From Clostridia bacterium (lineage in GTDB: Bacteria > Bacillota > Clostridia > UBA1212 > UBA1255), in assembly GCA_016287565.1 (NCBI GenBank), contig JAEFAM010000001.1, forward strand, positions 73,344-137,343: a stretch of 64,000 nucleotides of DNA, given 5' to 3'. The notes beneath the pieces are model-generated. The model had not been told where the DNA came from, did not search any database, and was given only the letters and a program-made list of their open reading frames with translations. Both the position numbers and the translations under genes were made by a program. Shown here one piece after another: positions 12,231 through 59,608 of the stretch. Within the stretch, counting starts at the first letter, position 1. Each line of letters starts with the position of its first letter.

Positions 12231-12259
12231 ATTATATCCTCCGGGGCCGGCGAACGCAA
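12231..12259 (-). promoter_or_regulatory. Putative promoter of the kinase–peptide–PqqD–peptidase operon (TTGCGT – 17 nt – TATAAT). The -35 hexamer lies inside a REP copy.
   Basis: On the minus strand a TATAAT -10 lies about 37 nt upstream of the kinase ATG, and the -35-like hexamer is supplied by the REP core. Confidence 0.3.
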
Positions 12260-12348
12260 GTCTGTCCCCCGTTCGCGCGTTCGGCGCCGGACGCTTGAAA
12301 CGCGAACCTGTCCCCCGTTCGGCGTGTCCCCCGTTCGGCGTGGGGGGA
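12251..12348. repeat. REP-like repeats (inverse orientation, AACGCAAGTCTGTCCCCCGTTCG, 3 copies). Positions 12251-12324 form the first copy of a roughly 72-bp direct repeat.
   Basis: The sequence was read directly. The block is near-identical to 12861-12932. Confidence 0.8.
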
Positions 12349-12447
12349 AGCCCAGGTTGCCTGGCTCCTCGGGCACAGATGAATAAGGTAAGACGCGGAA
12401 CGCAACCAAATGTTGACGCTGCGCTGTCTTGAAACGCTTGATAGGAG

Positions 12448-12493
12448 AAAAACACCCGGAAAACGAGCGCTTTAGTAAAATTCTGGGTGTTTT
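12448..12493. other. Inverted repeat AAAAACACCC ... GGGTGTTTT (stem-loop 1)
   Basis: A 9-bp stem with a loop of about 27 nt. A second, similar copy lies at 12616-12658. Confidence 0.4.
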
Positions 12494-12615
12494 GAGGAAG
12501 GCTGCGCCGTCTCGAAACGCCACACAAACGACAATCTTACAATAATTGCTTTTTTACAGCACATAATTTGCATTTTGACAAATGTCTTGCTGCCAGGGGG
12601 TTGAAAATGAGCGAG

Positions 12616-12658
12616 AAACACCCAAAAATTGAGGTTTTGTTGTGAATTATGGGTGTTT
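12616..12658. other. Inverted repeat AAACACCCA ... TGGGTGTTT (stem-loop 2)
   Basis: It is paralogous to 12448-12493 and is followed by AAGGAAG. Confidence 0.4.
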
Positions 12659-12825
12659 TAAGGAAGCGAGAACTACCTCAACGCCCAAAACGAGCGAGAG
12701 ATATGCGCAAATTGCTTTTTCGAGATAAATTTTCTGCGTTTTAAAGAAAAGCGCCACCCCAAGGCTGTAAGAGGTACCGCCTAAGTCCAAAAAGCGCGGA
12801 ACGAGAACAAAGGGCAGGGACGAAA

Positions 12826-12935
12826 AACGAGAACCTGTCCCCCGTTCGGCGTGGAGAGAGAAACGCAAGTCTGTCCCCCGTTCGCGCGTTCGGTGCCGGA
12901 CGCTTGAAACGAGAACCTGTCCCCCGTTCGGCCGC
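12826..12935. repeat. REP-like repeats (inverse orientation, 3 copies). Positions 12861-12932 form the second copy of the roughly 72-bp direct repeat.
   Basis: The sequence was read directly. Confidence 0.8.
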
Positions 12936-13043: not shown

Positions 13044-14267
13044 ATGAACGGGAAAGACAGGCAGATCGTAAGGGAACTTGCCAAACGGTATATGGAATTG
13101 ACCTGCTCGGAAAGGCAGCGGAAAATGGTGAAGCGGATGAGGGACAACAACGATCTTGTCCCGGGAAGGCCGCCGGTGCTGATCGACGAGATCCCGTGGT
13201 ACCAGATGGATATCGACGGCGAACTGATGCTCCGCTGCGAAGACCCGCGGGTCCGGGGCGTGGAGGATCACTTCCGCAAGGCGCTTTTCTATTTCAAGCA
13301 TTTCCCCGGGATCGACAATCTGTACGAGCCGTTTCTAAGGGTGCAGCAGGCGTTGTCCGTGACAGAGAAGGGCATCGGCTTGCCGTCGTACAATATCAGG
13401 CGCACCGACGGACAGAACAATATCATATCGCGGGAGCTGGAGGATCAGTTGGAGGACGAATCCGTGCTGGAGAAGTTCAAGCTGCCGGAAATGACGCCCC
13501 ATCCGGAGATCGACGCGGATAACATAGAATTCCTGACCGACCTGCTGGGCGACGTGATGCCCCTCAGGTTCTTCGGCTATGGTCCCTACTATTTAAATGC
13601 CTGGGACTACATCGCATACGTCCGCGGCGTGGAAGCCATCTACATCGACCTCTACGACCGCCCGGAATACCTGCTGGCCATCGTGCAGAAGCTGGTAGAC
13701 TACGCCAACAAATATCTCGACTATATCGAAGCGAATTTGAAGCCCGACAAGGACGTGGCCTGGCTCCACTGCACGCCCGGCTACATTTCCGGCATGGAAG
13801 ACGGTTTGAAAGGAGTCTGGTTCCGGGACAACGCCCAGCCTCTGGGCAGCATCTCGCCGGCAATGTTCGGCGAATTCGCCATCGACCCGGTGATCGAGCT
13901 GTCGAAGCGGTTCAAATATACGTATTACGGCTGTTGCGAGCCCCTCGACGACAAGATCGAGCAGGTCAAGAAGATCCCGAACCTGCGAAAAGTTGGTTGT
14001 CCCCCCTGGGCAAGCGTGGAAGCCACCGCCGAACAGCTGGGGGGCAATTACGTTCTGTCCCGGAAGCCCAATCCGGCGAAAGTTGCCATCTCCACCGATC
14101 CCGAGGAGATCCGCCGGGAGACAGAGGAGACGGTCAAGGCGTGCCTGAAGCACGGCTGCCCCTACGAACTGGTGCTGAAGGACATCAGCACGGTGAACGG
14201 CTGGCCGGGCAACCTTATCGTCTGGGCCGAGACGGTCAGCGGCGTGCTGAACGGATATTATGATTGA
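13044..14267 (+). CDS. Uroporphyrinogen-decarboxylase (URO-D/MtaA)-family-like protein
   Basis: A 407-aa protein. Its length and scattered motifs resemble the URO-D-like proteins common in gut Clostridia. An AAAGGGGTG ribosome-binding site precedes the start. The function is uncertain. Confidence 0.4.
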   Translation: MNGKDRQIVRELAKRYMELTCSERQRKMVKRMRDNNDLVPGRPPVLIDEIPWYQMDIDGELMLRCEDPRVRGVEDHFRKALFYFKHFPGIDNLYEPFLRVQQALSVTEKGIGLPSYNIRRTDGQNNIISRELEDQLEDESVLEKFKLPEMTPHPEIDADNIEFLTDLLGDVMPLRFFGYGPYYLNAWDYIAYVRGVEAIYIDLYDRPEYLLAIVQKLVDYANKYLDYIEANLKPDKDVAWLHCTPGYISGMEDGLKGVWFRDNAQPLGSISPAMFGEFAIDPVIELSKRFKYTYYGCCEPLDDKIEQVKKIPNLRKVGCPPWASVEATAEQLGGNYVLSRKPNPAKVAISTDPEEIRRETEETVKACLKHGCPYELVLKDISTVNGWPGNLIVWAETVSGVLNGYYD

Positions 14268-14290: not shown

Positions 14291-14334
14291 TTGCGGACTT
14301 GCGTTCGAACGCGTGACAGACTTGCGTTTCGGCC
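14291..14334. repeat. REP-like repeat (GTGACAGACTTGCGTTTCGG plus a partial copy)
   Basis: The sequence was read directly. Confidence 0.7.
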
Positions 14335-14364: not shown

Positions 14365-15120
14365 ATGAGCATTATGAGTGAAATGCTGCTTGACAGATAC
14401 CATCGCGCGATAGACGATCTTTTCCGCAAAGTCAGGGAAACTCAGCGGGAAAACATAATAAAGGCAGGGGAGCTCGTGGCCGACAGCGTTGCCAATGGCG
14501 GATGCATTTTCCTGTCGGGCATATGCCACCATATGGAGATGGATTCCATTTACCGCGGCGGCGGCCCCATTTTCTACAAGCATTTCAGCTACGATCTGAA
14601 AGTCGAAAGCGCTGCCAGGCAGAGGGACAGGTCGGATCTGGGATACGAGCGCGAAAGCGCCGCGGCGGCGAAATACGCATTGACCCAGTCGAACGTGCGG
14701 CCCGGAGACGTGCTGTTCGTCAGTTCGGTATCGGGCAGGACGGTAAGAGTCGTCGACCTGGCGTACGAGGCGGAGAAGCTGGGCGTCAAGGTCATAGCCT
14801 TCACGTCAATGGAGTACGCCAGAGAAGTTGAGCCGGTGCATCCCTCCGGCAAAAAGCTGTACGAGATCGCCACGCTAACCATGGACAACTGCGCTCCGGC
14901 GGCCGAGGCAATGCTGGAGGTCGATGGCATCGAGGCCAAATTCGGCGCCGCATCCGGCATCGCGTCGGACTACATAATGTGGAGCATAACCTCCGTTGCC
15001 GTGGAAAAGCTCCTGGAAAAAGGACTCACGCCCGGGATCCTGAAGAGCGCCAACTTCCCGGGGGGCAACGACTACAACAAGACCGTGATCGAGCCTCATT
15101 ACGAACAATACGGCTGGTAA
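14365..15120 (+). CDS. SIS (sugar isomerase) domain protein
   Basis: The SIS-like segments NGGCIFLSG and VLFVSSVSGRTVRVVDLAYEAEKLGVKVIAF are present. A GGAGGATG ribosome-binding site precedes the start. Confidence 0.5.
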   Translation: MSIMSEMLLDRYHRAIDDLFRKVRETQRENIIKAGELVADSVANGGCIFLSGICHHMEMDSIYRGGGPIFYKHFSYDLKVESAARQRDRSDLGYERESAAAAKYALTQSNVRPGDVLFVSSVSGRTVRVVDLAYEAEKLGVKVIAFTSMEYAREVEPVHPSGKKLYEIATLTMDNCAPAAEAMLEVDGIEAKFGAASGIASDYIMWSITSVAVEKLLEKGLTPGILKSANFPGGNDYNKTVIEPHYEQYGW

Positions 15121-22638: not shown

Positions 22639-23367
22639 ATGAAAAAGATCGGTATCCAGCTTTACTCCGTTGGCGGAGAAATGGCCAGAAGCGTGCCTGA
22701 AACGCTGAAAAAAGTTGCCGGGCTCGGCTACAGCCAGGTGGAATTCGCCGGATATTTCGGCGTTGACGCCCGGGAAATGAAAAAGATGCTGGACGAGTAC
22801 GGCCTGGAAGCCGTCAGCTCCCACGCCAACGTGGTGGGAAATCTTGACGCGGAACTGGAATATATGCAGACCGTAGGGGCGAAGAATATCGCCTGCGCCG
22901 GGATCGGAGATTTCAACAGCCATGACAACGTGCTGCGCATTGCTGAACTGTTCAATTCCATCGGCGAAAAGTGCGAAAAGGCCGGTATACATTTTAGTTA
23001 TCACAACCATTCTCACGAGTTTGCCCGGGACGAAGAGGGCAAATGGCTCCTGGACGTGCTGTACGAGAACACGGACCCGAAGCTGGTCAATGTGCAGCTT
23101 GACGTTTGCTGGGCGCTGGTGGGCGGCGCGGATCCCGTGGCGTACCTGGCGAAATACAAGGACAGGGTCAAAATGGTCCATATGAAAGAGGTCAAGACGG
23201 TCTCGCCTTACGAGGGCACGGCTATTGGTATGGGGCTGGTGGATTTCCCCGGCATCTACAAACTTCTGGGCGACGACGTGCTGTACATCGTGGAGCAGGA
23301 GGGGCTTCCTCATATGGAGACCTGGGAAGGGCTTCGCAGGAGCGTGGAATATCTGAAAGCGCTTTAA
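22639..23367 (+). CDS. Sugar phosphate isomerase/epimerase (xylose-isomerase-like TIM barrel)
   Basis: A 242-aa protein with the typical AP-endonuclease-2/xylose-isomerase-like motif spacing (metal-ligand H/E/D positions). Confidence 0.7.
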   Translation: MKKIGIQLYSVGGEMARSVPETLKKVAGLGYSQVEFAGYFGVDAREMKKMLDEYGLEAVSSHANVVGNLDAELEYMQTVGAKNIACAGIGDFNSHDNVLRIAELFNSIGEKCEKAGIHFSYHNHSHEFARDEEGKWLLDVLYENTDPKLVNVQLDVCWALVGGADPVAYLAKYKDRVKMVHMKEVKTVSPYEGTAIGMGLVDFPGIYKLLGDDVLYIVEQEGLPHMETWEGLRRSVEYLKAL

Positions 23368-23372
23368 GCGGC

Positions 23373-23402
23373 GGCGAACGGGGGACAGACTTGCGTTCGC
23401 TT
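23373..23402. repeat. REP-like repeat (GCGAACGGGGGACAGACTTGCGTTCGC; the flanks form a 7-bp inverted repeat)
   Basis: The sequence was read directly. Confidence 0.8.
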
Positions 23403-24939: not shown

Positions 24940-25032
24940 TGTAATAACCTCTGTTTCGGTTGGTTTTTGAATGTTGAGATTATAGCGCAAAAATGCGAAA
25001 GTGTCAATCGAAGTGCCGTCAAACGGTTCGCC

Positions 25033-25075
25033 GAACGGGTGACAGACTTGGGGTTCGCACAGACTTGGGTTTCGC
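25033..25075. repeat. REP-like repeats (2 copies, the GTGACAGACTTGG variant)
   Basis: The sequence was read directly. Confidence 0.7.
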
Positions 25076-25271
25076 AGCTAAATTCACCCTTCGGGCGAGC
25101 TAAATTGGATCCTGCGGATCCAGCTAAATTCCGCTGCGCGGAGCTAAATTCGTCCTGACGGACGAGCGATGTGGAAAGGGGACAGACTTGAGTTTCACAG
25201 CTAAATTCACCCTTCGGGTGAGCTAAATTGGATCCTGCGGAGCCGGCTGAATTCGTTCTAAAGAACGAGCG
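25076..25271. repeat. Composite hairpin array. The punctuation AGCTAAATT separates four short GC hairpins (cacccttcgggtg, ggatcctgcggatcc, ccgctgcgcgg, cgtcctgacggacg). There are two tandem units, each primed by a REP copy.
   Basis: The sequence was read directly. The same array, inverted, lies at 30573-30665. Confidence 0.7.
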
Positions 25272-30572: not shown

Positions 30573-30665
30573 GGCTCGTCCGTGAGGACGAATTTAGCTC
30601 CGCGCAGCGGAATTTAGCTGGATCCGCAGGATCCAATTTAGCTCACCCGAAGAGTGAATTTAGCT
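30573..30665. repeat. Composite hairpin array, the inverted copy of 25076-25168
   Basis: The sequence was read directly. The same four hairpins are separated by AATTTAGCT, and the array is followed by two REP copies. Confidence 0.7.
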
Positions 30666-30725
30666 GCGAACGCAAGTCTGTCCCCCGTTCGGCGAGTTGC
30701 GAACGCAAGTCTGTCCCCCGTTCGC
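30666..30725. repeat. REP-like repeats (2 copies, GCGAACGCAAGTCTGTCCCCCGTTCG)
   Basis: The sequence was read directly. Confidence 0.8.
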
Positions 30726-30758
30726 ACCCGTATCATGCAAAAAAATTTTCCGAAACTG

Positions 30759-46357: not shown

Positions 46358-46510
46358 GTGCGAACGGGGGACAGACTTGGGTTTCGGGCGGTCGAATGGT
46401 CCGTCGAACGGGGGACAGACTTGGGTTTCGGGCGGTCGAATGGTCCGTCGAACGGGGGACAGACTTTCGTTCGCCCCCCGGTGGAAAGGGGACAGACTTG
46501 CGATCACCGT
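46358..46510. repeat. REP-like repeat cluster (4 copies, GAACGGGGGACAGACTTGGGTTTCG and variants)
   Basis: The sequence was read directly. Confidence 0.8.
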
Positions 46511-46604
46511 GGGTTCGCCAGGCCCAGACCACTAAAATAATCTTGTGAAAATCCGGATAATAATGTATAATTTCCTTACAAACACAAAAAAAGAGGTGTC
46601 GAAC

Positions 46605-46844
46605 ATGAATATTACGAAAACGTACGAATCCCTGCCCAAGATCGTAAAGGTCATCCTTCAATTCTTCTTTGGATGGCTGATCGGCGGCGCCTACAGGATC
46701 ATCCGATTCTTTGAAACCAAAAACGTCATCACGCTGGTCGTTGGACTGCTTGTGCTGTTCACTGGCATCGGCAACGTGATCGCGTGGGTCGTTGACATCA
46801 TCACCGAGATCCTTCAGAACAAGATCTCCGTACTTGCCGCCTGA
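46605..46844 (+). CDS. Small membrane protein (2 transmembrane segments)
   Basis: A GAGGTG ribosome-binding site precedes an ATG. The 79-aa product opens MNITKTYESLPKIVKVILQFFFGWLIGGAYRII. Confidence 0.4.
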   Translation: MNITKTYESLPKIVKVILQFFFGWLIGGAYRIIRFFETKNVITLVVGLLVLFTGIGNVIAWVVDIITEILQNKISVLAA

Positions 46845-46966
46845 CGACGGACAATTATTGCCCGGAATTGTTCCCGGGCAACGCACGATTTTTCAAACAC
46901 GAGGCTGCTTTCCTTTATAGGAACGACAAGCGGCCTCTTGTTTTTTTTGTCTGCCTGGGCTGGAAA

Positions 46967-47065
46967 ACCCAAGTCTGTCACCTTTCCACCGGCAGGTGAA
47001 CGCAAGTCTGTCACCTTTCCACCGGCTGGAAAACGCAAGTCTGTCACTCGTTCGCGGCTGGGTTG
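46967..47065. repeat. REP-like repeat cluster (3 copies, inverse orientation, the GTCACC variant)
   Basis: The sequence was read directly. Confidence 0.75.
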
Positions 47066-47148
47066 AACCGTGAAAAACCAACAAAAAAACAGGCGCCCGG
47101 AAGCGCCTGCTGTTGTGCGACTTATAAAATCAGATCGCGGCCAGCCGA

Positions 47149-48084: not shown

Positions 48085-48180
48085 TAACGGAGACACCTCT
48101 TCTCGTTTTGATGTACGAATTGTAACATATTTGTGAAGCTGTTGGCAAGAGGCCGGCGGACAGGCGGTGGAGGGGCGCGA

Positions 48181-48292
48181 ACAGGGGACAGACTTGGGTT
48201 TCGACCGATTCGCGCGGCGGTGGAAAGGGGACAGACTTCCGTTTCGAACGATTCGACCGATGGTGAACAGGGGACAGACTTCCGTTTCGCCT
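48181..48292. repeat. REP-like repeat cluster (3 copies)
   Basis: The sequence was read directly. Confidence 0.8.
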
Positions 48293-48360
48293 CGTTTAAA
48301 ATCCTCATTAAAATGTGTTGACACGTTTTAGGGAACTTGTTATAATTGCGTCACTCGACT

Positions 48361-48449
48361 GGAGAAGTACCCAAGTAGGTCGAAGGGGACGGTTTGCTAA
48401 ACCGTTAGGTCGGGTTACCGGCGCCGGGGTTCGAATCCCCGCTTCTCCG
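48361..48449 (+). tRNA. tRNA-Ser (anticodon GCU)
   Basis: A GGAGAAG/CTTCTCC acceptor stem, a TTGCTAA anticodon loop, a long variable arm and a GGGGTTCGAATCCCC T-arm. Confidence 0.8.
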
Positions 48450-48465
48450 TGAAAGAAAGCAAAAG

Positions 48466-48497: not shown

Positions 48498-48594
48498 ATA
48501 CATATTTTCCGGAATAACGCGGGTTTTTGCTTTGCTTAACGTCGAGGATTTCGGCAAAACGGGGGAGCTGAGAGATACCCGGGCGTACCCGGTA

Positions 48595-48665
48595 AAACGC
48601 AAGTCTGTCACCCGTTCGCCCCCTTGGCAAAGCCTCCGAAACGCAAGTCTGTCACTTTTCCACCG
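48595..48665. repeat. REP-like repeats (2 copies, inverse orientation)
   Basis: The sequence was read directly. Confidence 0.75.
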
Positions 48666-48796
48666 TCACCTTCCACGCCTCTCGCGCCACTTTACTTCCG
48701 CGCCTCCCCATTATATAATCTAAAGTACTAAAGTATGTGCCTCCGATTCGGCGGAGCCGGACGGGGGCGGGACGAAAAGACGGGGGCGGGTTAATA

Positions 48797-50404
48797 ATGA
48801 AAGCAAAAGCAAAAACCCATGACACACAAAACAAAAAGCAGCTCAAAAAGATTGCCGCCGCAGGCATTAGAGTGATATTAGCCGCGCTGATCTGCATGAC
48901 CGTGCTGTTGCCAACGACCGCGTGCAAAAAAGTTGACCCGGACTCGAAATTGCCCACGACAAATATTGCCCCGGCCCCGTTGCCGGCGCAAAAAGAGCCG
49001 AACGACAGCGGCGAACCGGTGACATACACGGTCAACGGGACCATTTCCTCCGATATGGTCGTCCAGCGCAACGCGTATTTTAACGTGTTTGGGCGGTCTG
49101 ACAACCCCGGCGCCGTTATTTACGGCGAGTTTATGGGCGAAAAACGGTACGGGATCGTGGCGGAGGACGGCAGCTGGACGATCCGGTTTTCGTCCCACGA
49201 GGCGGTGAACGAGGGACAGACTTTGGTTATCTACCCGAAAAACGGCGAAAGAACCGAGTTTGAAGACATCCTTGTGGGCGACGTTTGGGTGATCTCCGGA
49301 CAATCGAACGCCGAACTGATGTATATGAGCACCGCGTCGACGACGCCGGAATACGCCAAAGAGATCAACAAAAACGATCTGATCCGCATTTATTCGCAGT
49401 CGCGGCAATCGGTGATGGACGCGTACACCGACGGCCTTGACGTTACGATACCGCAGGAAGACGTGGTCTCGCCGAACACGAAATGGGCCAAAACCACGAC
49501 GCAGACGGTGTTGTCCTTCTCCGCCATCGGTTATTATTTCGGAAAAGAGCTCAGCAAAACCATTGATGTGCCGCTCGGCTTGATCATGGCGGCCTCAGGC
49601 GGGTCAACGCTCCACGAACTGATGCCCGGGGACGTTGCCGCGGAACTCGGATTCACCACGGGCGCCAGCGTCCCGGTCTCCGGCTTCTACAACACGTTGC
49701 TTTATCCGTTTACGCGCAACAAAATTACGGGAATGATCTTTTATCAAGGCGAGAGCGAGAGTGCGGGCGGCCAATACCTTCGTTACGCGGATAATCTGAA
49801 GCGGACGGTCAGCGGTTACCGGCACGCGTGGGGGCTGTGTTTCCCGTTCATCAACGTTCAGCTGAGTACCCACGGCAGTGAAGCCGATTATTACTGGCCC
49901 GAGCTGCCGTACATTCGCGCCGCGCAGTTCGACGCCTACCGCAGCATGCTGAATTCGTACATCGTCACGGCAATGGATCAGGGCTACAGAGCGGGGGATC
50001 CGGACTGGGCGCATCCGCTTTACAAGCTGGAACTGGGCAAGCGCGCGGCAAAAATCGCTGCTTACGTCGTTTACGGCCAGGGGGACGCGGCGCATTCGCT
50101 GGCGCCGGAGCCGGACAAGATCACCTGGAACAGCGACAATTCGATCGTTATCACCTTTAAAAACGTGGGCGACGGAATAACGCTGCTGGAAGGCGACAAG
50201 ATTGCCGGCCTTTACGCACTCGACGAATACGGCGACAAGATGTATTCCGAGATCGAGCAGATAGACGGGTCAACGGTCAAGATCGTTTTGACCCGTGAGC
50301 CTTCTGCGGTGGGTTACGGCATCCGTCAAGACGGGCTGCCGGCCAGCGCCAACATCGCCAGTAGCGACGGGATCCCGATGCCGGCCTTTATTATCAAAAA
50401 GTAA
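48797..50404 (+). CDS. Sialate O-acetylesterase family (SASA/DUF303) lipoprotein
   Basis: A GQSNAE block (the family's GQSNM motif) and the family architecture are present. The start at MKAKAK gives a signal peptide, and the Cys of a likely lipobox follows. Confidence 0.7.
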   Translation: MKAKAKTHDTQNKKQLKKIAAAGIRVILAALICMTVLLPTTACKKVDPDSKLPTTNIAPAPLPAQKEPNDSGEPVTYTVNGTISSDMVVQRNAYFNVFGRSDNPGAVIYGEFMGEKRYGIVAEDGSWTIRFSSHEAVNEGQTLVIYPKNGERTEFEDILVGDVWVISGQSNAELMYMSTASTTPEYAKEINKNDLIRIYSQSRQSVMDAYTDGLDVTIPQEDVVSPNTKWAKTTTQTVLSFSAIGYYFGKELSKTIDVPLGLIMAASGGSTLHELMPGDVAAELGFTTGASVPVSGFYNTLLYPFTRNKITGMIFYQGESESAGGQYLRYADNLKRTVSGYRHAWGLCFPFINVQLSTHGSEADYYWPELPYIRAAQFDAYRSMLNSYIVTAMDQGYRAGDPDWAHPLYKLELGKRAAKIAAYVVYGQGDAAHSLAPEPDKITWNSDNSIVITFKNVGDGITLLEGDKIAGLYALDEYGDKMYSEIEQIDGSTVKIVLTREPSAVGYGIRQDGLPASANIASSDGIPMPAFIIKK

Positions 50405-50433
50405 GAAGCGCCAGCAGGCGCAGACCGGCGCGA

Positions 50434-50580
50434 ACGCGGGACAGACTTGGTTTCGCGCCGACTGTGGACGGGGGACAGACTTTAGGTCCCCCGCCTTTTT
50501 TTGCCGGCGAACGAGGACAGCGAACGGGGGACAGACTTGTGTTTTTGCGGGATGCGAACGCGTGACAGACTTGTATCTCG
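50434..50580. repeat. REP-like repeat cluster (4 copies)
   Basis: The sequence was read directly. Confidence 0.8.
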
Positions 50581-50596
50581 ATAGCCCCATCGTCCG

Positions 50597-51547: not shown

Positions 51548-51607
51548 TGTGCGAACGAGTGACAGACTTGGTTTTTTGTGGTGCGAACGAGTGACAGACT
51601 TGCGTTT
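51548..51607. repeat. REP-like repeats (2 copies)
   Basis: The sequence was read directly. Confidence 0.75.
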
Positions 51608-51641
51608 TCTCTCTTGCGGTTACTCCTGTTTTAATTCCGTT

Positions 51642-52454
51642 TTATTTGGGGTTAGGCTGTTCAGGCCAAACGAAAGTCGAAGCGAGATTGCTCTCGCCAT
51701 TGTCGATCAGAATGTCAATTCCGGAGGCAGAGCGGTTGACAGCCGTCAAAAACCAGACCCAATCGGCTATTTCCTGCTCTGTTGCCCACTTCTTCAGCGG
51801 GGTAACATCCATTATCTTTGTCCATAAAGCCGGGTCACGCATAACAGGGTCGTTAGATTCGGTTATTACGCCGCCCGGCGATATAGAATTTGCGATCGCG
51901 CCGTATGGCGCAAGTCTGACGGCAACGTTTTTCATATATCCGATCAGGCCGGCTTTGGAGGCAACGTATTCAGGGAATTCAAATCCGGTATGTGCTGAGG
52001 CGGAAGCGCAAAACAGGACGGAGCGTATTTCTGGCTGGAATGCATATTTTTCGGTAACGTTGATGGCGCCTTTGAGGTTGATCATAATATCGTCAGGGGA
52101 ATTTTGCACTCCGGCGCAGATGAAGATGACGTTAGGCGGAGGGAGTGGGGTGTCGGAGGAACTTTCTTCCCCGAAACGCAAGTCTGTCCCCCGTTCGCGC
52201 TCGGATTCGCATAAGCCAGAGGGTCCATCTTTTGCGAAATTCGGGAGTGTTTCCGGGCGTGAAACGTCAACTATATAGTGAGTATATGCATTGTGCGTGA
52301 TCGTTCCGGGCAAAACGTCAAAACCGAAAACGGAGCACCCTTCTTCGAGGTATTTAATTGCCGCGGAGCGGCCTATTCCGCGGGCGGAACCGGTAATAAG
52401 CACTTTGAGAGACCTGTTATTGCCGTTCGAATCGCCGCTTTTCAGTTCATTCAT
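51642..52454 (-). CDS. SDR-family oxidoreductase with an in-frame insertion derived from a REP copy
   Basis: TGSARGIGRS is the glycine-rich NAD(P)-binding motif. The stretch ...GLCESERERGTDLRFGEESS... is encoded by the REP at 52173-52200, and the loop is about 20 aa longer than usual. Confidence 0.65.
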   Translation of the reverse strand: MNELKSGDSNGNNRSLKVLITGSARGIGRSAAIKYLEEGCSVFGFDVLPGTITHNAYTHYIVDVSRPETLPNFAKDGPSGLCESERERGTDLRFGEESSSDTPLPPPNVIFICAGVQNSPDDIMINLKGAINVTEKYAFQPEIRSVLFCASASAHTGFEFPEYVASKAGLIGYMKNVAVRLAPYGAIANSISPGGVITESNDPVMRDPALWTKIMDVTPLKKWATEQEIADWVWFLTAVNRSASGIDILIDNGESNLASTFVWPEQPNPK

Positions 52455-53197
52455 CTTGCCACGTCCTTTCCGGAAAGTTGTTTTTCAAGTTCGAAATACT
52501 CATCACCGACCCCCAACCGCTTCCAGCGTTTGCAGATGGCGTACCCGGCGGGCGAGAAAACCACCTCCATGAGAAGTTCCAGAGAGGCTCCGATGAGTGA
52601 ACAGGTGACAGACTGGAGGAACGTCCAGTGGAAGCCGTTCCAAAAGATCGGAGCAAACACCATGAAGGTCAAAATGGCAAAGATGAGGTTGTCAACGAAT
52701 TGACCGATGAAGGTGGACGCATAGCTGCGAACGAAAAAAGCGATTTTGCCGTCGGGGTTTGCTCTAAACAGCTTGCCAACCGCAAAATTTAAGAAATTGT
52801 TGACAAGAGAAGAGAGGAAAAACGCAATCGTGCTGCTGAGCAGTATGAACCAGGTGCCGCCGAGGATCTCGTTGAAAGCAGTGTAATCCGCGTCGACGCC
52901 GGGAGTCGGAATTATGCTGACAATGTAGAAAATCAGGCAAACGAGCAGGTTCGTGGCGATAGCAAAAACCGACAATTTCGTTGCCGCCCTTGGGCCGAAG
53001 TGTTTTGTGACGACGTCCATGCACAAAAATGAGATCCACGAAACAAGAATTCCTCCGTCAATTGCCAGAAATCCCGTCTGGATCAGCGTTTTGTTGGCGA
53101 GAAGGTTCATTGTGACAACGGAAATTGCAAAAATGGCAACCACCGGCGATGGTATGGCGCGGAATAGTGCCGAAGTAAGGCGGATTTTTTGCTTCAT
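52451..53197 (-). CDS. Queuosine-precursor transporter (YhhQ/DUF165 family)
   Basis: Its length, six transmembrane helices and conserved pattern fit the family. A GGAG ribosome-binding site precedes the start. Confidence 0.55.
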   Translation of the reverse strand: MKQKIRLTSALFRAIPSPVVAIFAISVVTMNLLANKTLIQTGFLAIDGGILVSWISFLCMDVVTKHFGPRAATKLSVFAIATNLLVCLIFYIVSIIPTPGVDADYTAFNEILGGTWFILLSSTIAFFLSSLVNNFLNFAVGKLFRANPDGKIAFFVRSYASTFIGQFVDNLIFAILTFMVFAPIFWNGFHWTFLQSVTCSLIGASLELLMEVVFSPAGYAICKRWKRLGVGDEYFELEKQLSGKDVAR

Positions 53198-53291: not shown

Positions 53292-54525
53292 CAGTGAACT
53301 TGGGACAGACTTCCGTTGCCTGGATATTCTATCACTTCTGGCCTGTATAGTTCAATAACGAAAAAAACGATTCGATTGACCGGCTTTATTGTCGTTTTTT
53401 GGCAAATTGACGAGAGAAAAAAGCGATTTGGACGATGCTGAGTATGCTGCGTCAAAAAAAGCAAAAGGATACACACAGTTGTAAGCCGGGCTGACTAAAA
53501 GGCAACAACCTTGAACGCAAAATTAATTGACATGTTGTGTTTTCTGTTATCAGATCAACGCGAAAAAAGCAACAAACAACTCTTTCACATTACGATTTTT
53601 CAAATTGTTGTCGCGTTCCGGCGCTAACAGGCCAGCTCTGCCCATTTAAAGACGGTACTTTTGCTCTTCGCCAGGAATTGACCGATTTGCTTGTAAGTCA
53701 GGCCGCGCATTCGGAATTGCCGTATACAGTCGAAAAGTCGGTTCAACCCCATACCGAGAAGCTGCGCGCCGTTATAGCAGGCGGAGAGTGTTTGCATAAT
53801 TTCGAATGAATATTCATCAATGACCCGCGGCTTCAGCTTTTCGGAGAGTTCAATGCAGCGAGATTCCTCGTCGGTCGTCGGACTGCAAGAGTGAAAAAAC
53901 GCAAATTCCGGCTGGGCAATCGCCTCAAAAACGTAATCACGGTCAATCAAAGTGTTGTTGTCGCTGAAAAAGCAGCGAAAACTGCTATCTGCGTAATCTC
54001 CCGCCCGACTGACGAGCCCAGCTTTGACCGGATTGTTGTGAATATATCTGACCAGCGTCCTAAAATAGGCGAGATCCTCCACGACTTCGCTTTTGAAGCG
54101 GTTCTGAAACAGGTGGCCGCAGCGGTCGTATTTGGCGTTGTACCAGCGCACGAACCGGCATTCAAGTTTTTGCATAAATTTGCTGATCAGGCCGCATTCC
54201 GGCTCGCGCAACAACAGATGCACGTGATTCGACATAAAACAATAGGCAAAAACGTTAAAATTGTACTCTTTTTTCAAATCGCCAAGGATAAACAAAAACT
54301 TTTTAATATCGAGCCGGTCAATAAACACTTTCTCCCTGTTATTGCCTCTCAGCATGACATGGTAAGTGCCGGACACGCTCATTTGTCGTGGCATAGTGGG
54401 CATGGTCAATACCTCCATATTTAGTTTTTGGTGGGTACATTCAGATGCTGCAAGCGAGCCCGATTGTATCAGTTTGCATCAGCCTTGTCAACGAAAAAAA
54501 CAGAAGTCTGTCCCCCGTTCGCGGC
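53292..54525 (-). mobile_element. REP–RAYT unit: the tyrosine transposase gene is flanked by inverted REP copies (53292-53315 and 54495-54525)
   Basis: The flanking repeats GGGACAGACTTCCGTT and AAGTCTGTCCCCCGTTCG are in opposite orientations. Confidence 0.7.
53624..54403 (-). CDS. REP-associated tyrosine transposase (RAYT; IS200/Y1-like) with a C-terminal HTH
   Basis: It has YHVMLRGNNREKVF, the HuH motif (FMSNHVHLLL), the catalytic Tyr region (NRF...YIHNNPVKAGLV), and a C-terminal LTYKQIGQFLAKSKSTVFKW. The start was chosen at MPTMPRQ, which has a GGAGGT ribosome-binding site. Confidence 0.8.
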   Translation of the reverse strand: MPTMPRQMSVSGTYHVMLRGNNREKVFIDRLDIKKFLFILGDLKKEYNFNVFAYCFMSNHVHLLLREPECGLISKFMQKLECRFVRWYNAKYDRCGHLFQNRFKSEVVEDLAYFRTLVRYIHNNPVKAGLVSRAGDYADSSFRCFFSDNNTLIDRDYVFEAIAQPEFAFFHSCSPTTDEESRCIELSEKLKPRVIDEYSFEIMQTLSACYNGAQLLGMGLNRLFDCIRQFRMRGLTYKQIGQFLAKSKSTVFKWAELAC

Positions 54526-54548
54526 CCTTGTTCGCACCCGCGTTCGCA

Positions 54549-54577
54549 TTGACATCGGCGCCCCGAACTGGTACAAT
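54549..54577 (+). promoter_or_regulatory. Consensus sigma-A promoter upstream of smc (TTGACA – 17 nt – TACAAT)
   Basis: Perfect hexamers with a 17-nt spacer. Confidence 0.55.
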
Positions 54578-58244: not shown

Positions 58245-58275
58245 GGGGCGAACGGGGGACAGACATGGGTTTTTT
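58245..58275. repeat. REP-like repeat variant (GAACGGGGGACAGACATGGGTTTTT) that overlaps the ftsY start codon
   Basis: The sequence was read directly. Confidence 0.6.
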
Positions 58276-59176
58276 TGAAAAATTGAAGGCCGGGCTGAAG
58301 AAGACCCGGGAAGGTTTTAAGAATAGATTGAATATGATCCTGGCCGGTTTCGGCAAGGTCGACGAGGACCTGTTCGACGAGCTGGAAGAACTGCTGATCA
58401 CGTCCGATTTCGGCGTCGAGACCACCGAACGGCTGATGGAGAGGCTCCGGGCGCGCGTCAAGGAAGGCCGTATCGTCGACCCTGCGCAGGTGGAAGAGGC
58501 GCTTCGCGAGGAGATCGCGGCAATGCTTTCAAAGGGCGAGCAGGGGCTCGATACAGAAGCGGTGCCTGTGCTGATCTCCGTGATCGGGGTCAACGGCGTG
58601 GGCAAGACCACTTCTATCGGCAAGATGGCCTACCTTTACAAGAACGCCGGGAAGCGTGTCCTGCTGGCGGCCGGCGATACTTTCCGTGCTGCTGCGATCG
58701 ATCAGCTGGCCGTCTGGGCCCAGCGCGCGGGCGTCGATATGATCAGCCAGTCCGAAGGCGCCGATCCGGCGGCAGTGCTGTTCGACGCGTGCCGCAGCGC
58801 CAGGGCGAAGGGCGTCGATGTGCTGATCTGCGACACTGCGGGGCGGCTGCACAACAAAAAGAACCTCATGGACGAGCTGGCCAAAATGAACCGCGTAGCC
58901 GAGCGCGAAATGGCCGGCGTGCGCCACGAAACATTCCTGGTGCTCGACGCGGCAACAGGCCAGAACGCCGTGAATCAGGCGCGAGCCTTTTCCGAAGTGG
59001 CCGGGATCACCGGCATCATCCTGACGAAGCTTGACGGCTCGTCAAAAGGCGGCATCGTGGTGTCGATCTGCGAGGAGCTGGGCATTCCCGTGCGCCTGGT
59101 CGGCGTAGGCGAAGGCATCGGCGACCTGCAGCCCTTCGTGCCCGAAGAGTTCGCAAAAGCGCTGTTCGAGGGCTGA
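58265..59176 (+). CDS. ftsY: Signal recognition particle receptor FtsY
   Basis: The N-terminus [18 protein letters not shown] is typical of Firmicutes FtsY. The SRP GTPase NG domain is present ([19 protein letters not shown]). Confidence 0.95.
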
Positions 59177-59248: not shown

Positions 59249-59320
59249 GGGCCTGAAAAACGCAAGTCTGTCACCTGTTCACCCGAGAGCCGCCTGACGG
59301 CGAACGCAAGTCTGTCACCT
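59249..59320. repeat. REP-like repeats (2 copies, inverse orientation, the GTCACC variant)
   Basis: The sequence was read directly. Confidence 0.75.
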
Positions 59321-59373
59321 GTTTCCTAAGGACCTGCTGCTAATTTGCGCATGAAAAAAGCAAAAAATAAGAA

Positions 59374-59526: not shown

Positions 59527-59608
59527 GGGAGATTTCCCGAGTGGCCAAAGGGGACAGACTGTAAATCTGCTGGCATTGCCTTCTGTGGTTCGAATCCACA
59601 ATCTCCCA
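59527..59608 (+). tRNA. tRNA-Tyr (anticodon GUA)
   Basis: A GGGAGAT/ATCTCCC acceptor stem, a CTGTAAA anticodon loop, a long variable arm, a TGTGG-TTCGAAT-CCACA T-arm and a discriminator A. Confidence 0.75.

Follow-up and report, generated by a model that had tools for sequence, protein, structure and literature searches.

Among the Y1 HuH transposases of bacterial chromosomes, the system described below most resembles subclass 2.1 of the TnpA_REP proteins, in which a Y1 core is combined with a C-terminal extension similar to Bac_DnaA_C, HTH_23 or HTH_28 and with a serine motif placed after the catalytic tyrosine (Quentin, Siguier, Chandler and Fichant 2018, PMC6006769). This is the second-largest TnpA_REP subclass, present in about 15% of strains, and the Y-motif signature of class 2 TnpA_Y1 and TnpA_REP proteins in general is Y---NP (PMC6006769). 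Subclass 2.1 has been equated with the TIRYTs of Di Nocera, De Gregorio and Rocco 2013 (PMC6006769; PMC3733652), whose genes are bounded by terminal inverted repeats sharing the sequence GGGGWSAS, some of which form moderately abundant families that occur in dimers or clusters (PMC3733652). Repetitive extragenic palindromic (REP)-like structures were found next to subclass 2.1 genes by neither automatic nor manual searches, and similarity to Bac_DnaA_C was reported for a part of subclass 2.1.2 (Quentin et al., PMC6006769). In the classification of RAYTs, group 1 is the largest group, occurs in Clostridia among others and is flanked by 16-mers that are moderately abundant (Bertels, Gallie and Rainey 2017, PMC5581495). 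In this study, a gene of this kind was analysed in a 64,000-nucleotide (nt) stretch of the genome of a Clostridia bacterium (GenBank assembly GCA_016287565.1, contig JAEFAM010000001.1, positions 73,344 to 137,343 of the forward strand), referred to below as the window and numbered from its first letter. The gene, located on the minus strand at 53624..54403, probably encodes a class 2 Y1 HuH enzyme of the subclass 2.1 (TIRYT) type that would act, in a REPtron/TIRtron setting, on dispersed hairpin repeats.

The gene and its predicted parts are the following (residues are numbered throughout according to a 264-amino-acid (aa) open reading frame, in which the catalytic Tyr125 corresponds to Tyr120 of the 259-aa protein):

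53624..54403, minus strand, stop codon included: gene of the 259-aa Y1 HuH enzyme with a helix-turn-helix (HTH) tail, delimited by the single open reading frame, the GGAGG sequence and the starts of homologues
54032..54367, minus strand: Y1_Tnp catalytic domain, residues 18-129 (PF01797, E = 3e-18)
54218-54226, minus strand: HuH motif, H65-V-H67 within NHVHLLL
54044-54046, minus strand: catalytic Tyr125 in the motif YIHNNP
53861..53980, minus strand: helical connector, residues 147-186, from the AlphaFold2 secondary structure, following the motif Y142-x-x-S145-S146
53630..53818, minus strand: C-terminal five-helix domain, residues 201-263, from the AlphaFold2 model and weak HTH matches
53642-53707, minus strand: HTH, residues 238-259, including the invariant Q244, formed by the last helices of the five-helix domain

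Read on the minus strand, the open reading frame (ORF) of the RAYT-type gene extends from 54418 to 53624; it comprises 264 aa and is free of internal stops. A preliminary description of this DNA, made from the letters alone, had placed the gene at 53624-54403; this interval proved to be one uninterrupted ORF, the upper end of which is the second in-frame ATG (opening MPTMPRQ...), the first being that at 54418. We regard the ATG at 54403 as the likelier start of the two, because it is preceded, 8 nt upstream, by a GGAGG sequence (54416..54412) with which the ATG at 54418 overlaps, close homologues open with MPR or MPT, and the protein P0001, which is 94% identical, is 259 aa long.

Both its sequence and its predicted structure identify the protein as a RAYT-type Y1 HuH enzyme, in agreement with the preliminary description, which had based this identity on the motifs HVHLL and YIHNNP. 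The profile search it had called for returned a significant match to Pfam Y1_Tnp (PF01797; residues 18-129, 66.5 bits against a cutoff of 23, E = 3e-18). The sequence RYIHNNP contributes Y125, N129 and P130, i.e. the Y---NP signature with a polar residue four positions after the tyrosine. In an alignment of 121 family members, H67, Y125, N129, P130 and Q244 are invariant, H65 and G239 are conserved in at least 90% of the sequences, and the motif GHLFQ-R is invariant or nearly so. The sole solved structure found by sequence was 4ER8, the TnpA_REP of Escherichia coli (E = 3e-4). An AlphaFold2 model of the full protein including its C-terminal domain, built with the 121 family sequences, was confident (mean predicted local distance difference test (pLDDT) score 92.5, predicted template modelling (TM) score 0.74), and its top match in a Foldseek search of the PDB was again 4ER8 (E = 5e-9, 160 columns of the 165-aa chain, target TM score 0.72). 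The TnpA proteins of IS608, ISDra2 and IS200 ranked behind it (2VJV, 2A6M, 2F4F and 2XMA, with E of ~3e-5 and weaker, about 1e-5 to 1e-4).

The TnpA enzymes of the IS200/IS605 family (IS608, ISDra2, IS200) share with the window protein the HuH/Y1 fold and the catalytic residues, and they recognise single-strand DNA hairpins, but they are only 125-155 aa long, lack an HTH tail and reside inside mobile, multi-copy insertion sequences (IS), often together with tnpB. The Y1_Tnp fold and motifs, as well as the inverted repeats bracketing the gene (see below), would also be expected if the locus were an active IS of this type, with a mobile tnpA gene that has its own subterminal hairpin ends and copies itself instead of serving dispersed repeats. 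This explanation is highly improbable: the IS200 model of NCBIfam scored 21.8 bits against a cutoff of 55, the fold is nearer to TnpA_REP than to any of the three IS enzymes, the gene is the only Y1 gene in the window and is far outnumbered by the repeats, and no tnpB-sized ORF lies next to it, its neighbours being smc and vut_1. Moreover, the order smc-RAYT-vut_1-SDR-Mem_trans (SDR, short-chain dehydrogenase) is kept in two related lineages, represented by the contigs carrying P0001 and P0002, in which SMC is 99% and 91% identical, respectively. This kept position suggests that the gene is domesticated rather than mobile.

The preliminary description had further claimed a C-terminal extension of about 100 aa with an HTH. 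Judging from the family alignment and the model, this extension is real, conserved and HTH-like. The catalytic helix is directly followed by a conserved motif, Y142-x-x-S145-S146 (53978-53992), of which Y142, S145 and S146 are at least 90% conserved, and then by the helical connector, to about which the Foldseek alignment with 4ER8 extends. In the AlphaFold2 model a short, less confident linker joins the connector to the five-helix domain, for which pLDDT is 94-97 in the full model and 96-98 in a separate model of the last 115 residues. The predicted HTH comprises G239 followed by LTYKQIGQFLAKSKSTVFKW (residues 240-259, ending in W259), and the tail keeps a constant helix, G-[LV]-[ST]-x-[RK]-Q-[IL]. 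The tail is covered across the family, since the best 120 homologues listed (234-315 aa) span 91-98% of the query; together with the single ORF, this rules out that the C-terminal region belongs to a separate ORF. For the window protein alone the HTH matches were weak (HTH_23 with E = 0.008, below the Pfam cutoff, and also Sigma70_r4 and HTH_38). Family-wide, HTH_23 was matched by 14 of 44 members (best 9.5e-7), HTH_7 by 7 of 44 (best 3.5e-7), HTH_38 by 10 of 44 and HTH_28 by 4 of 44.

No specific HTH family could be assigned to the five-helix domain by Foldseek, a PDB-sequence profile search or hhalign. The profile search returned generic HTH proteins only (for example an IS21-family transposase and a resolvase, E ~0.01-0.06), besides a match to protein A that was spurious and driven by repeats, and a phmmer search with the 69-aa tail against 1.8 billion representatives gave 5 matches, one of them a family member, and was thus uninformative on the wider spread of the domain. 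These searches bear on a proposal made for subclass 2.1 (PMC6006769), according to which the tail would resemble domain IV of DnaA and would direct the enzyme to the replication origin or fork instead of to the repeats. The Bac_DnaA_C similarity within subclass 2.1.2 speaks for it, and so does the DNA-binding domain of Mycobacterium tuberculosis DnaA (3PVP), which came second in the Foldseek search with the tail (probability 0.80, 70 columns), but with E = 0.86. However, Bac_DnaA_C is absent among the Pfam matches listed for the window protein and the 44 family members, in which respect this subgroup differs from subclass 2.1 as published; hhalign of the tail profile against residues 364-467 of E. 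coli DnaA (domain IV included) found nothing (probability 0.14%); the profile search pointed to generic HTH proteins; and the conserved flanking motif is unlike a DnaA box (PMC6006769). A DnaA-like tail is therefore quite improbable for this protein.

Two copies of a short repeat, in opposite orientations, enclose the gene:

54499..54520, minus strand (the strand of the gene): upstream flanking repeat GAACGGGGGACAGACTTCTGTT, about 80 nt upstream of the start codon
53296..53317, plus strand (the opposite strand): downstream flanking repeat GAACTTGGGACAGACTTCCGTT, about 310 nt past the stop codon

This pair constitutes an inverted repeat (I2) with arms of 22 nt, matching at 19 of 22 positions (86% complementary). 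The upstream arm contains GGGGACAG and matches the core GGGACAGACTTC exactly, and the downstream arm carries TGGGACAG, which agrees with GGGGWSAS at 7 of 8 positions. On account of its HTH tail, the motif Y142-x-x-S145-S146, the Y---NP signature and the inverted pair with GGGGACAG, the gene is, as far as such sequence characters tell, a member of TnpA_REP subclass 2.1 (TIRYT). The fusion of a RAYT with an HTH tail is itself an ordinary architecture, already published and not new. The shared features are (i) the Y1 core with a tail matching HTH_23 and HTH_28 and with post-catalytic serines (a motif compared by its published description), and (ii) a low-copy gene with inverted repeats of the GGGGWSAS type and a dispersed family of singles, dimers and clusters.

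The flanking copies belong to a dense repeat family. With at most one mismatch, GGGACAGACTTC occurs 20 times in the window (0.24 expected), and GGGGACAG occurs 25 times (2.1 expected). Curation with the pattern G[GT]GACAGACTT yielded at least 33 copies over the 64 kb of the window, 30 of which are intergenic according to a rough gene model. Two matches were removed in this step: that at 59551, which falls within the anticodon arm of tRNA-Tyr, and a doubtful one at 52605, which lies inside vut_1, has one mismatch and has no stem. The copies are arranged as singles, direct tandem clusters (with a period of 33-44 nt) and inverted clusters. Their consensus is G[CT]GAACGG-GGGACAGACTT-GCGTT[CT], and the unit is a short predicted hairpin in which a stem of ~4-8 base pairs (bp) closes a conserved 13-nt loop, GGGGACAGACTTG, the stem being GCGAACG/CGTTCGC or, in a sub-family, TGGAAA/TTTCCA; an example of the full unit is GCGCGAACGGGGGACAGACTTGCGTTCGCCG. 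Several copies are terminator-like. Rfam contains no family matching the repeats, its matches in the window being three tRNAs only. A metagenome scan with the 22-mer repeat core detected 5 contigs with 1-3 copies each, which shows that the repeat exists elsewhere, while copy number cannot be deduced from such a scan.

The repeats were then compared among loci of relatives (11 loci examined, at 33-94% identity, roughly 20 kb each), originating from Eggerthellaceae (L007, L008), Syntrophomonadaceae (L011), Lachnospiraceae (L016), other Clostridia (L004, L009, L019, L020) and Bacillaceae (L010, L012, L014, L017). A repeat of the GGGGAC[AG]G type is present beside the gene in all of them, with a weaker GGGAC core in L014 and L017, and most loci contain extra dispersed copies. 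For L004, L019 and L020 this evidence is a motif listing, not a seeded inverted-repeat search (a seeded search of L004 gave no seed). In five loci (L007, L008, L009, L011 and L016) a species-specific stem encloses the conserved motif in the loop, the stems being AACACA/TGTGTT, ATATCA/TGATAT, GTTGTCA/TGACAAC and AAACCAC/GTGGTTT.

The hairpin design was tested on 68 units drawn from the window as well as from these five loci and aligned without gaps as an 8-bp stem and a 13-nt loop. Pairing was found in 73.7% of cells compared with 49.3% in shuffles, and 0 of 500 shuffles reached the observed value, a figure that overstates significance and is not a probability, since copies within a genome share descent. 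The covariation score was 0.64, against 0.26 in shuffles and 0.11-0.30 in controls with slid partners. Seven of the eight stem pairs vary on both sides, 82-94% of units form each of the four inner pairs, and the loop positions G, A, C and G are invariant. The slid-partner control is the fairer comparison and, together with the stem swaps between genomes, more telling evidence for a hairpin than the shuffles.

A promoter-like site separates the upstream repeat from the gene:

54463..54491, minus strand: predicted sigma-70-like promoter TTGACA-17-TACAAT with an extended TG, 11 of 12 matches in a consensus scan only

Its -35 box starts 7 nt after the upstream repeat. In the interval 54463-54577 there are two divergent promoter-like sites (TTGACA-17-TACAAT, 11/12 matches each), one facing the RAYT gene and the other smc. 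The upstream repeat copy sits between them, and on the minus strand this copy, with the T-run that follows it, also scores as terminator-like.

Most likely, the HTH tail supplies a second DNA contact, for which there are two candidate targets. It may read the repeat itself, that is the conserved GGGGACNG core or the lineage-specific stem, or it may bind the double-stranded copy abutting the -35 box of its own gene and thereby autoregulate; the two are compatible. It is plausible that the tail helps to recognise the cognate repeat, and reading of GGGGAC[AG]G by the tail would be compatible with the data, because this motif is the sole constant of the repeats across phyla and the tail has a constant helix of its own. 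Autoregulation is equally allowed, because the upstream repeat ends 7 nt before the promoter-like site. Autoregulation is common among transposases that have an HTH domain at either terminus, and a stricter version of this idea would make the tail mainly an autoregulator, which binds the duplex repeat at its own promoter and represses it, with no role in recognition of the catalytic substrate. The position of the upstream repeat (54499-54520) next to a strong promoter-like site fits this version, as does the finding that, of the 14 loci (window included) for which the upstream sequence is long enough, 12 have a copy of the repeat about 60-450 nt ahead of the start. Nevertheless, the promoter is a consensus match only, the motif also follows the gene and recurs at dozens of further sites that are irrelevant to repressing the RAYT gene, and autoregulation is compatible with a role in substrate recognition and does not exclude it. 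A tail devoted to autoregulation is rather unlikely.

The two syntenic lineages also allow the rates of change to be compared. In the P0002 lineage (L001/L002) the RAYT protein is 63% identical to that of the window, compared with 91% for SMC, 81% for Vut_1 and 83% for Mem_trans; in the P0001 lineage (L019) the values are 94% for RAYT, 99% for SMC and 98% for Vut_1. In both, divergence of the RAYT protein is much more rapid than that of its syntenic neighbours, and all three syntenic lineages have an intact ORF. The repeats differ as well: those of the P0002 lineage have AGTT loops and TGCGCA stems, those of the window ACTT loops and GCGAACG stems. Such parallel divergence of repeat and enzyme fits an enzyme and a repeat family evolving jointly while their chromosomal site stays the same, which has been described for RAYT/REPIN systems. 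The faster divergence of the RAYT protein than of its neighbours in the P0002 lineage, the weak stems of both flanking copies and the terminator-like character of several copies could also be read as signs of a decaying or functionally reassigned relic, whose enzyme has ceased to act on the repeats, these being kept for other reasons (for example as terminators or insulators). This is improbable, given that the ORF has stayed intact, all catalytic residues are invariant in 121 sequences, and the repeat core changes together with the protein, as expected if the two still interact.

The RAYT gene of the P0002 lineage differs from the window gene by a clean 78-nt (26-codon) in-frame insertion between the core and the tail. 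The insertion, located in the region L001:590-700 (corresponding to L002:3183-3293 and L003:545-655), contains the repeat core aatgaatggGGGGACAGAGTTcgggtc, so that the repeat family appears to have inserted into the gene of its own enzyme, leaving the frame intact.

Compared with known systems, the locus has several traits of a canonical RAYT, namely one gene in the window, synteny in two lineages and bracketing by inverted copies of a 33-copy family. The RAYT groups are likewise housekeeping-like, single-copy and syntenic (PMC5581495), and group 1 fits by the description in that paper only, although the density of repeats here is nearer to that of the REPIN-associated groups 2 and 3. The window protein is probably not a member of group 2, because its identity to the type of that group (E. 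coli, 4ER8) is about 21%, group membership being set at more than 26% identity to reference members. The E. coli TnpA_REP is nonetheless its closest solved structure and shares the REPtron layout, with a single-copy gene between inverted dispersed palindromic repeats, and presumably also the single-strand hairpin chemistry, whereas the window protein is roughly 100 aa longer, owing to its HTH domain. E. coli REPs have long imperfect stems and small loops, in contrast to the stems of 4-8 bp and the long conserved loop found here. With respect to TIRYTs, the local density is high (33 copies in 64 kb, versus 'moderately abundant' families), and with respect to subclass 2.1 as published, the difference is the hairpin with covarying stems and with the motif in a 13-nt loop, observed here and in five distant relatives.

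In the reading that we favour, the enzyme would be a single-strand-DNA endonuclease/transposase composed of the catalytic core, the helical connector and the five-helix domain ending in the HTH. By analogy with E. coli TnpA_REP and IS608 TnpA, it would bind repeats folded into hairpins in single-stranded DNA, such as that of the replication fork, and would cleave and rejoin DNA beside them via a 5'-phosphotyrosine intermediate. The repeats would thereby be spread and maintained in trans, with the gene itself staying fixed in the chromosome.

Several observations weigh against this reading. First, we infer binding, cleavage and mobilisation by the window protein from E. coli TnpA_REP and IS608. 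Second, the best NCBIfam match, REP_Tyr_transpos (NF047646), reached 74.5 bits, below its equivalog cutoff of 80, and a Foldseek search of the PDB with the C-terminal model yielded no significant match (best E = 0.7). Third, the stems of both gene-flanking copies are poor (~3-4 bp), which places these copies nearer to plain inverted repeats than to hairpins, and, unlike the REPs of E. coli, the window repeats have no GTAG foot, their conserved part being the long loop. Fourth, besides the shared descent of copies in the hairpin test, the loop model is not universal, as in L010, L012, L020 and L004 the GGGAC motif stands in another palindromic context. Finally, a recognition code relating the HTH recognition helix to the A or G variant of GGGGAC[AG]G was sought in 14 proteins (window and 13 relatives) and rejected for want of a clean correspondence: genomes with the A variant mostly have the recognition helix [SG]-[KRQ]-S-[TV]-[VI], yet L012 has SRSVI with the G variant, and the sample is confounded by phylogeny.

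As a tentative extension, which we hold with less than even confidence, TIRYT/subclass 2.1 enzymes may serve a REP-like hairpin of their own, with a short, lineage-variable stem and a loop of 13-15 nt carrying GGGGAC[AG]G across phyla. Recognition would then be centred on the loop, possibly through the HTH tail, whereas E. coli TnpA_REP reads the GTAG foot of its hairpin, and the repeats would tolerate in-frame insertion into genes, including the gene of the enzyme itself in the sister lineage. That relatives from two phyla share a hairpin design in which the loop is conserved and the stems covary goes modestly beyond the findings of Quentin et al. If this design holds, it would offer a probable substrate for a large uncharacterised Y1 branch (subclass 2.1) and a direct route to testing the HTH tail. 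In any case, the locus presents a subclass 2.1/TIRYT gene and its repeat family with unusual clarity and density, and, as the repeat core and the enzyme diverge together among housekeeping neighbours that are 81-99% identical, it constitutes a small natural system for enzyme-repeat co-evolution outside Proteobacteria.

Apart from the pair flanking the RAYT gene, the repeat copies of the window include the following:

12248..12897, minus strand: two full copies (cores 12258 and 12867), with GGGGACAGG variants at 12308, 12835 and 12917
14303..14333, plus strand: single intergenic copy GTGACAGACTT (core 14313), between a gene end at 14267 and a gene start at 14365
23372..23402, plus strand: single intergenic copy (core 23382) with the full GCGAACG/CGTTCGC stem, just past a gene end at 23367
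25029..25209, plus strand: two copies (cores 25039 and 25179)
30664..30737, minus strand: two adjacent copies (cores 30674 and 30707)
46358..46519, plus strand: four direct copies (cores 46368, 46412, 46456 and 46489), with a period of 44 and 100% matches in Tandem Repeats Finder (TRF)
46961..47067, minus strand: three direct copies (cores 46971, 47004 and 47037), inverted with respect to the cluster at 46358..46519
48175..48301, plus strand: three copies just upstream of tRNA-Ser (cores 48185, 48228 and 48271)
48591..48675, minus strand: two copies just downstream of tRNA-Ser (cores 48601 and 48645), inverted with respect to those at 48175-48301
49203..49233, plus strand: single copy (core 49213), in frame inside a SASA-esterase gene (48797-50404, plus strand)
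50428..50592, plus strand: four copies (cores 50438, 50472, 50528 and 50562)
51549..51621, plus strand: two copies (cores 51559 and 51591)
52170..52200, minus strand: one copy, in frame inside the short-chain dehydrogenase gene 51642-52454 (peptide ...SERERGTDLRFGEE...)
58246..58276, plus strand: single copy GGGACAGACATG (core 58256) overlapping the start of an ftsY-like gene, the variant ATG being the start codon at 58265
59254..59338, minus strand: two copies upstream of tRNA-Thr and tRNA-Tyr (cores 59264 and 59308)

The opposed clusters at 46358-46519 (plus) and 46961-47067 (minus) bracket a 99-aa ORF (46545-46844) with a weak AbrB-family match, and those around tRNA-Ser (48360-48450) flank it in the same manner as the single copies flank the RAYT gene. 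The copy within the esterase gene (49203-49233) has the full 5' flank GGTGAACGAGGGACAGACTTTGG and encodes the peptide EAVNEGQTLV, just upstream of the SASA domain; the esterase is secreted. In the case of the dehydrogenase, the Pfam adh_short match is split in two around the repeat copy, and the orthologous gene (63-69% identical) has at the same place two inverted copies (L001:2597 and 2673) and a longer segment that cannot be aligned. A second, unrelated repeat, AGCTAAATTCACCCTTCGGGTGAGCTAAATTGGATC, forms a small hairpin between direct AGCTAAATT words and adjoins copies of the main repeat at two sites (25076-25230 and about 30620-30675). At the first of these, TRF detected an array with a period of 22 nt (25076-25167).

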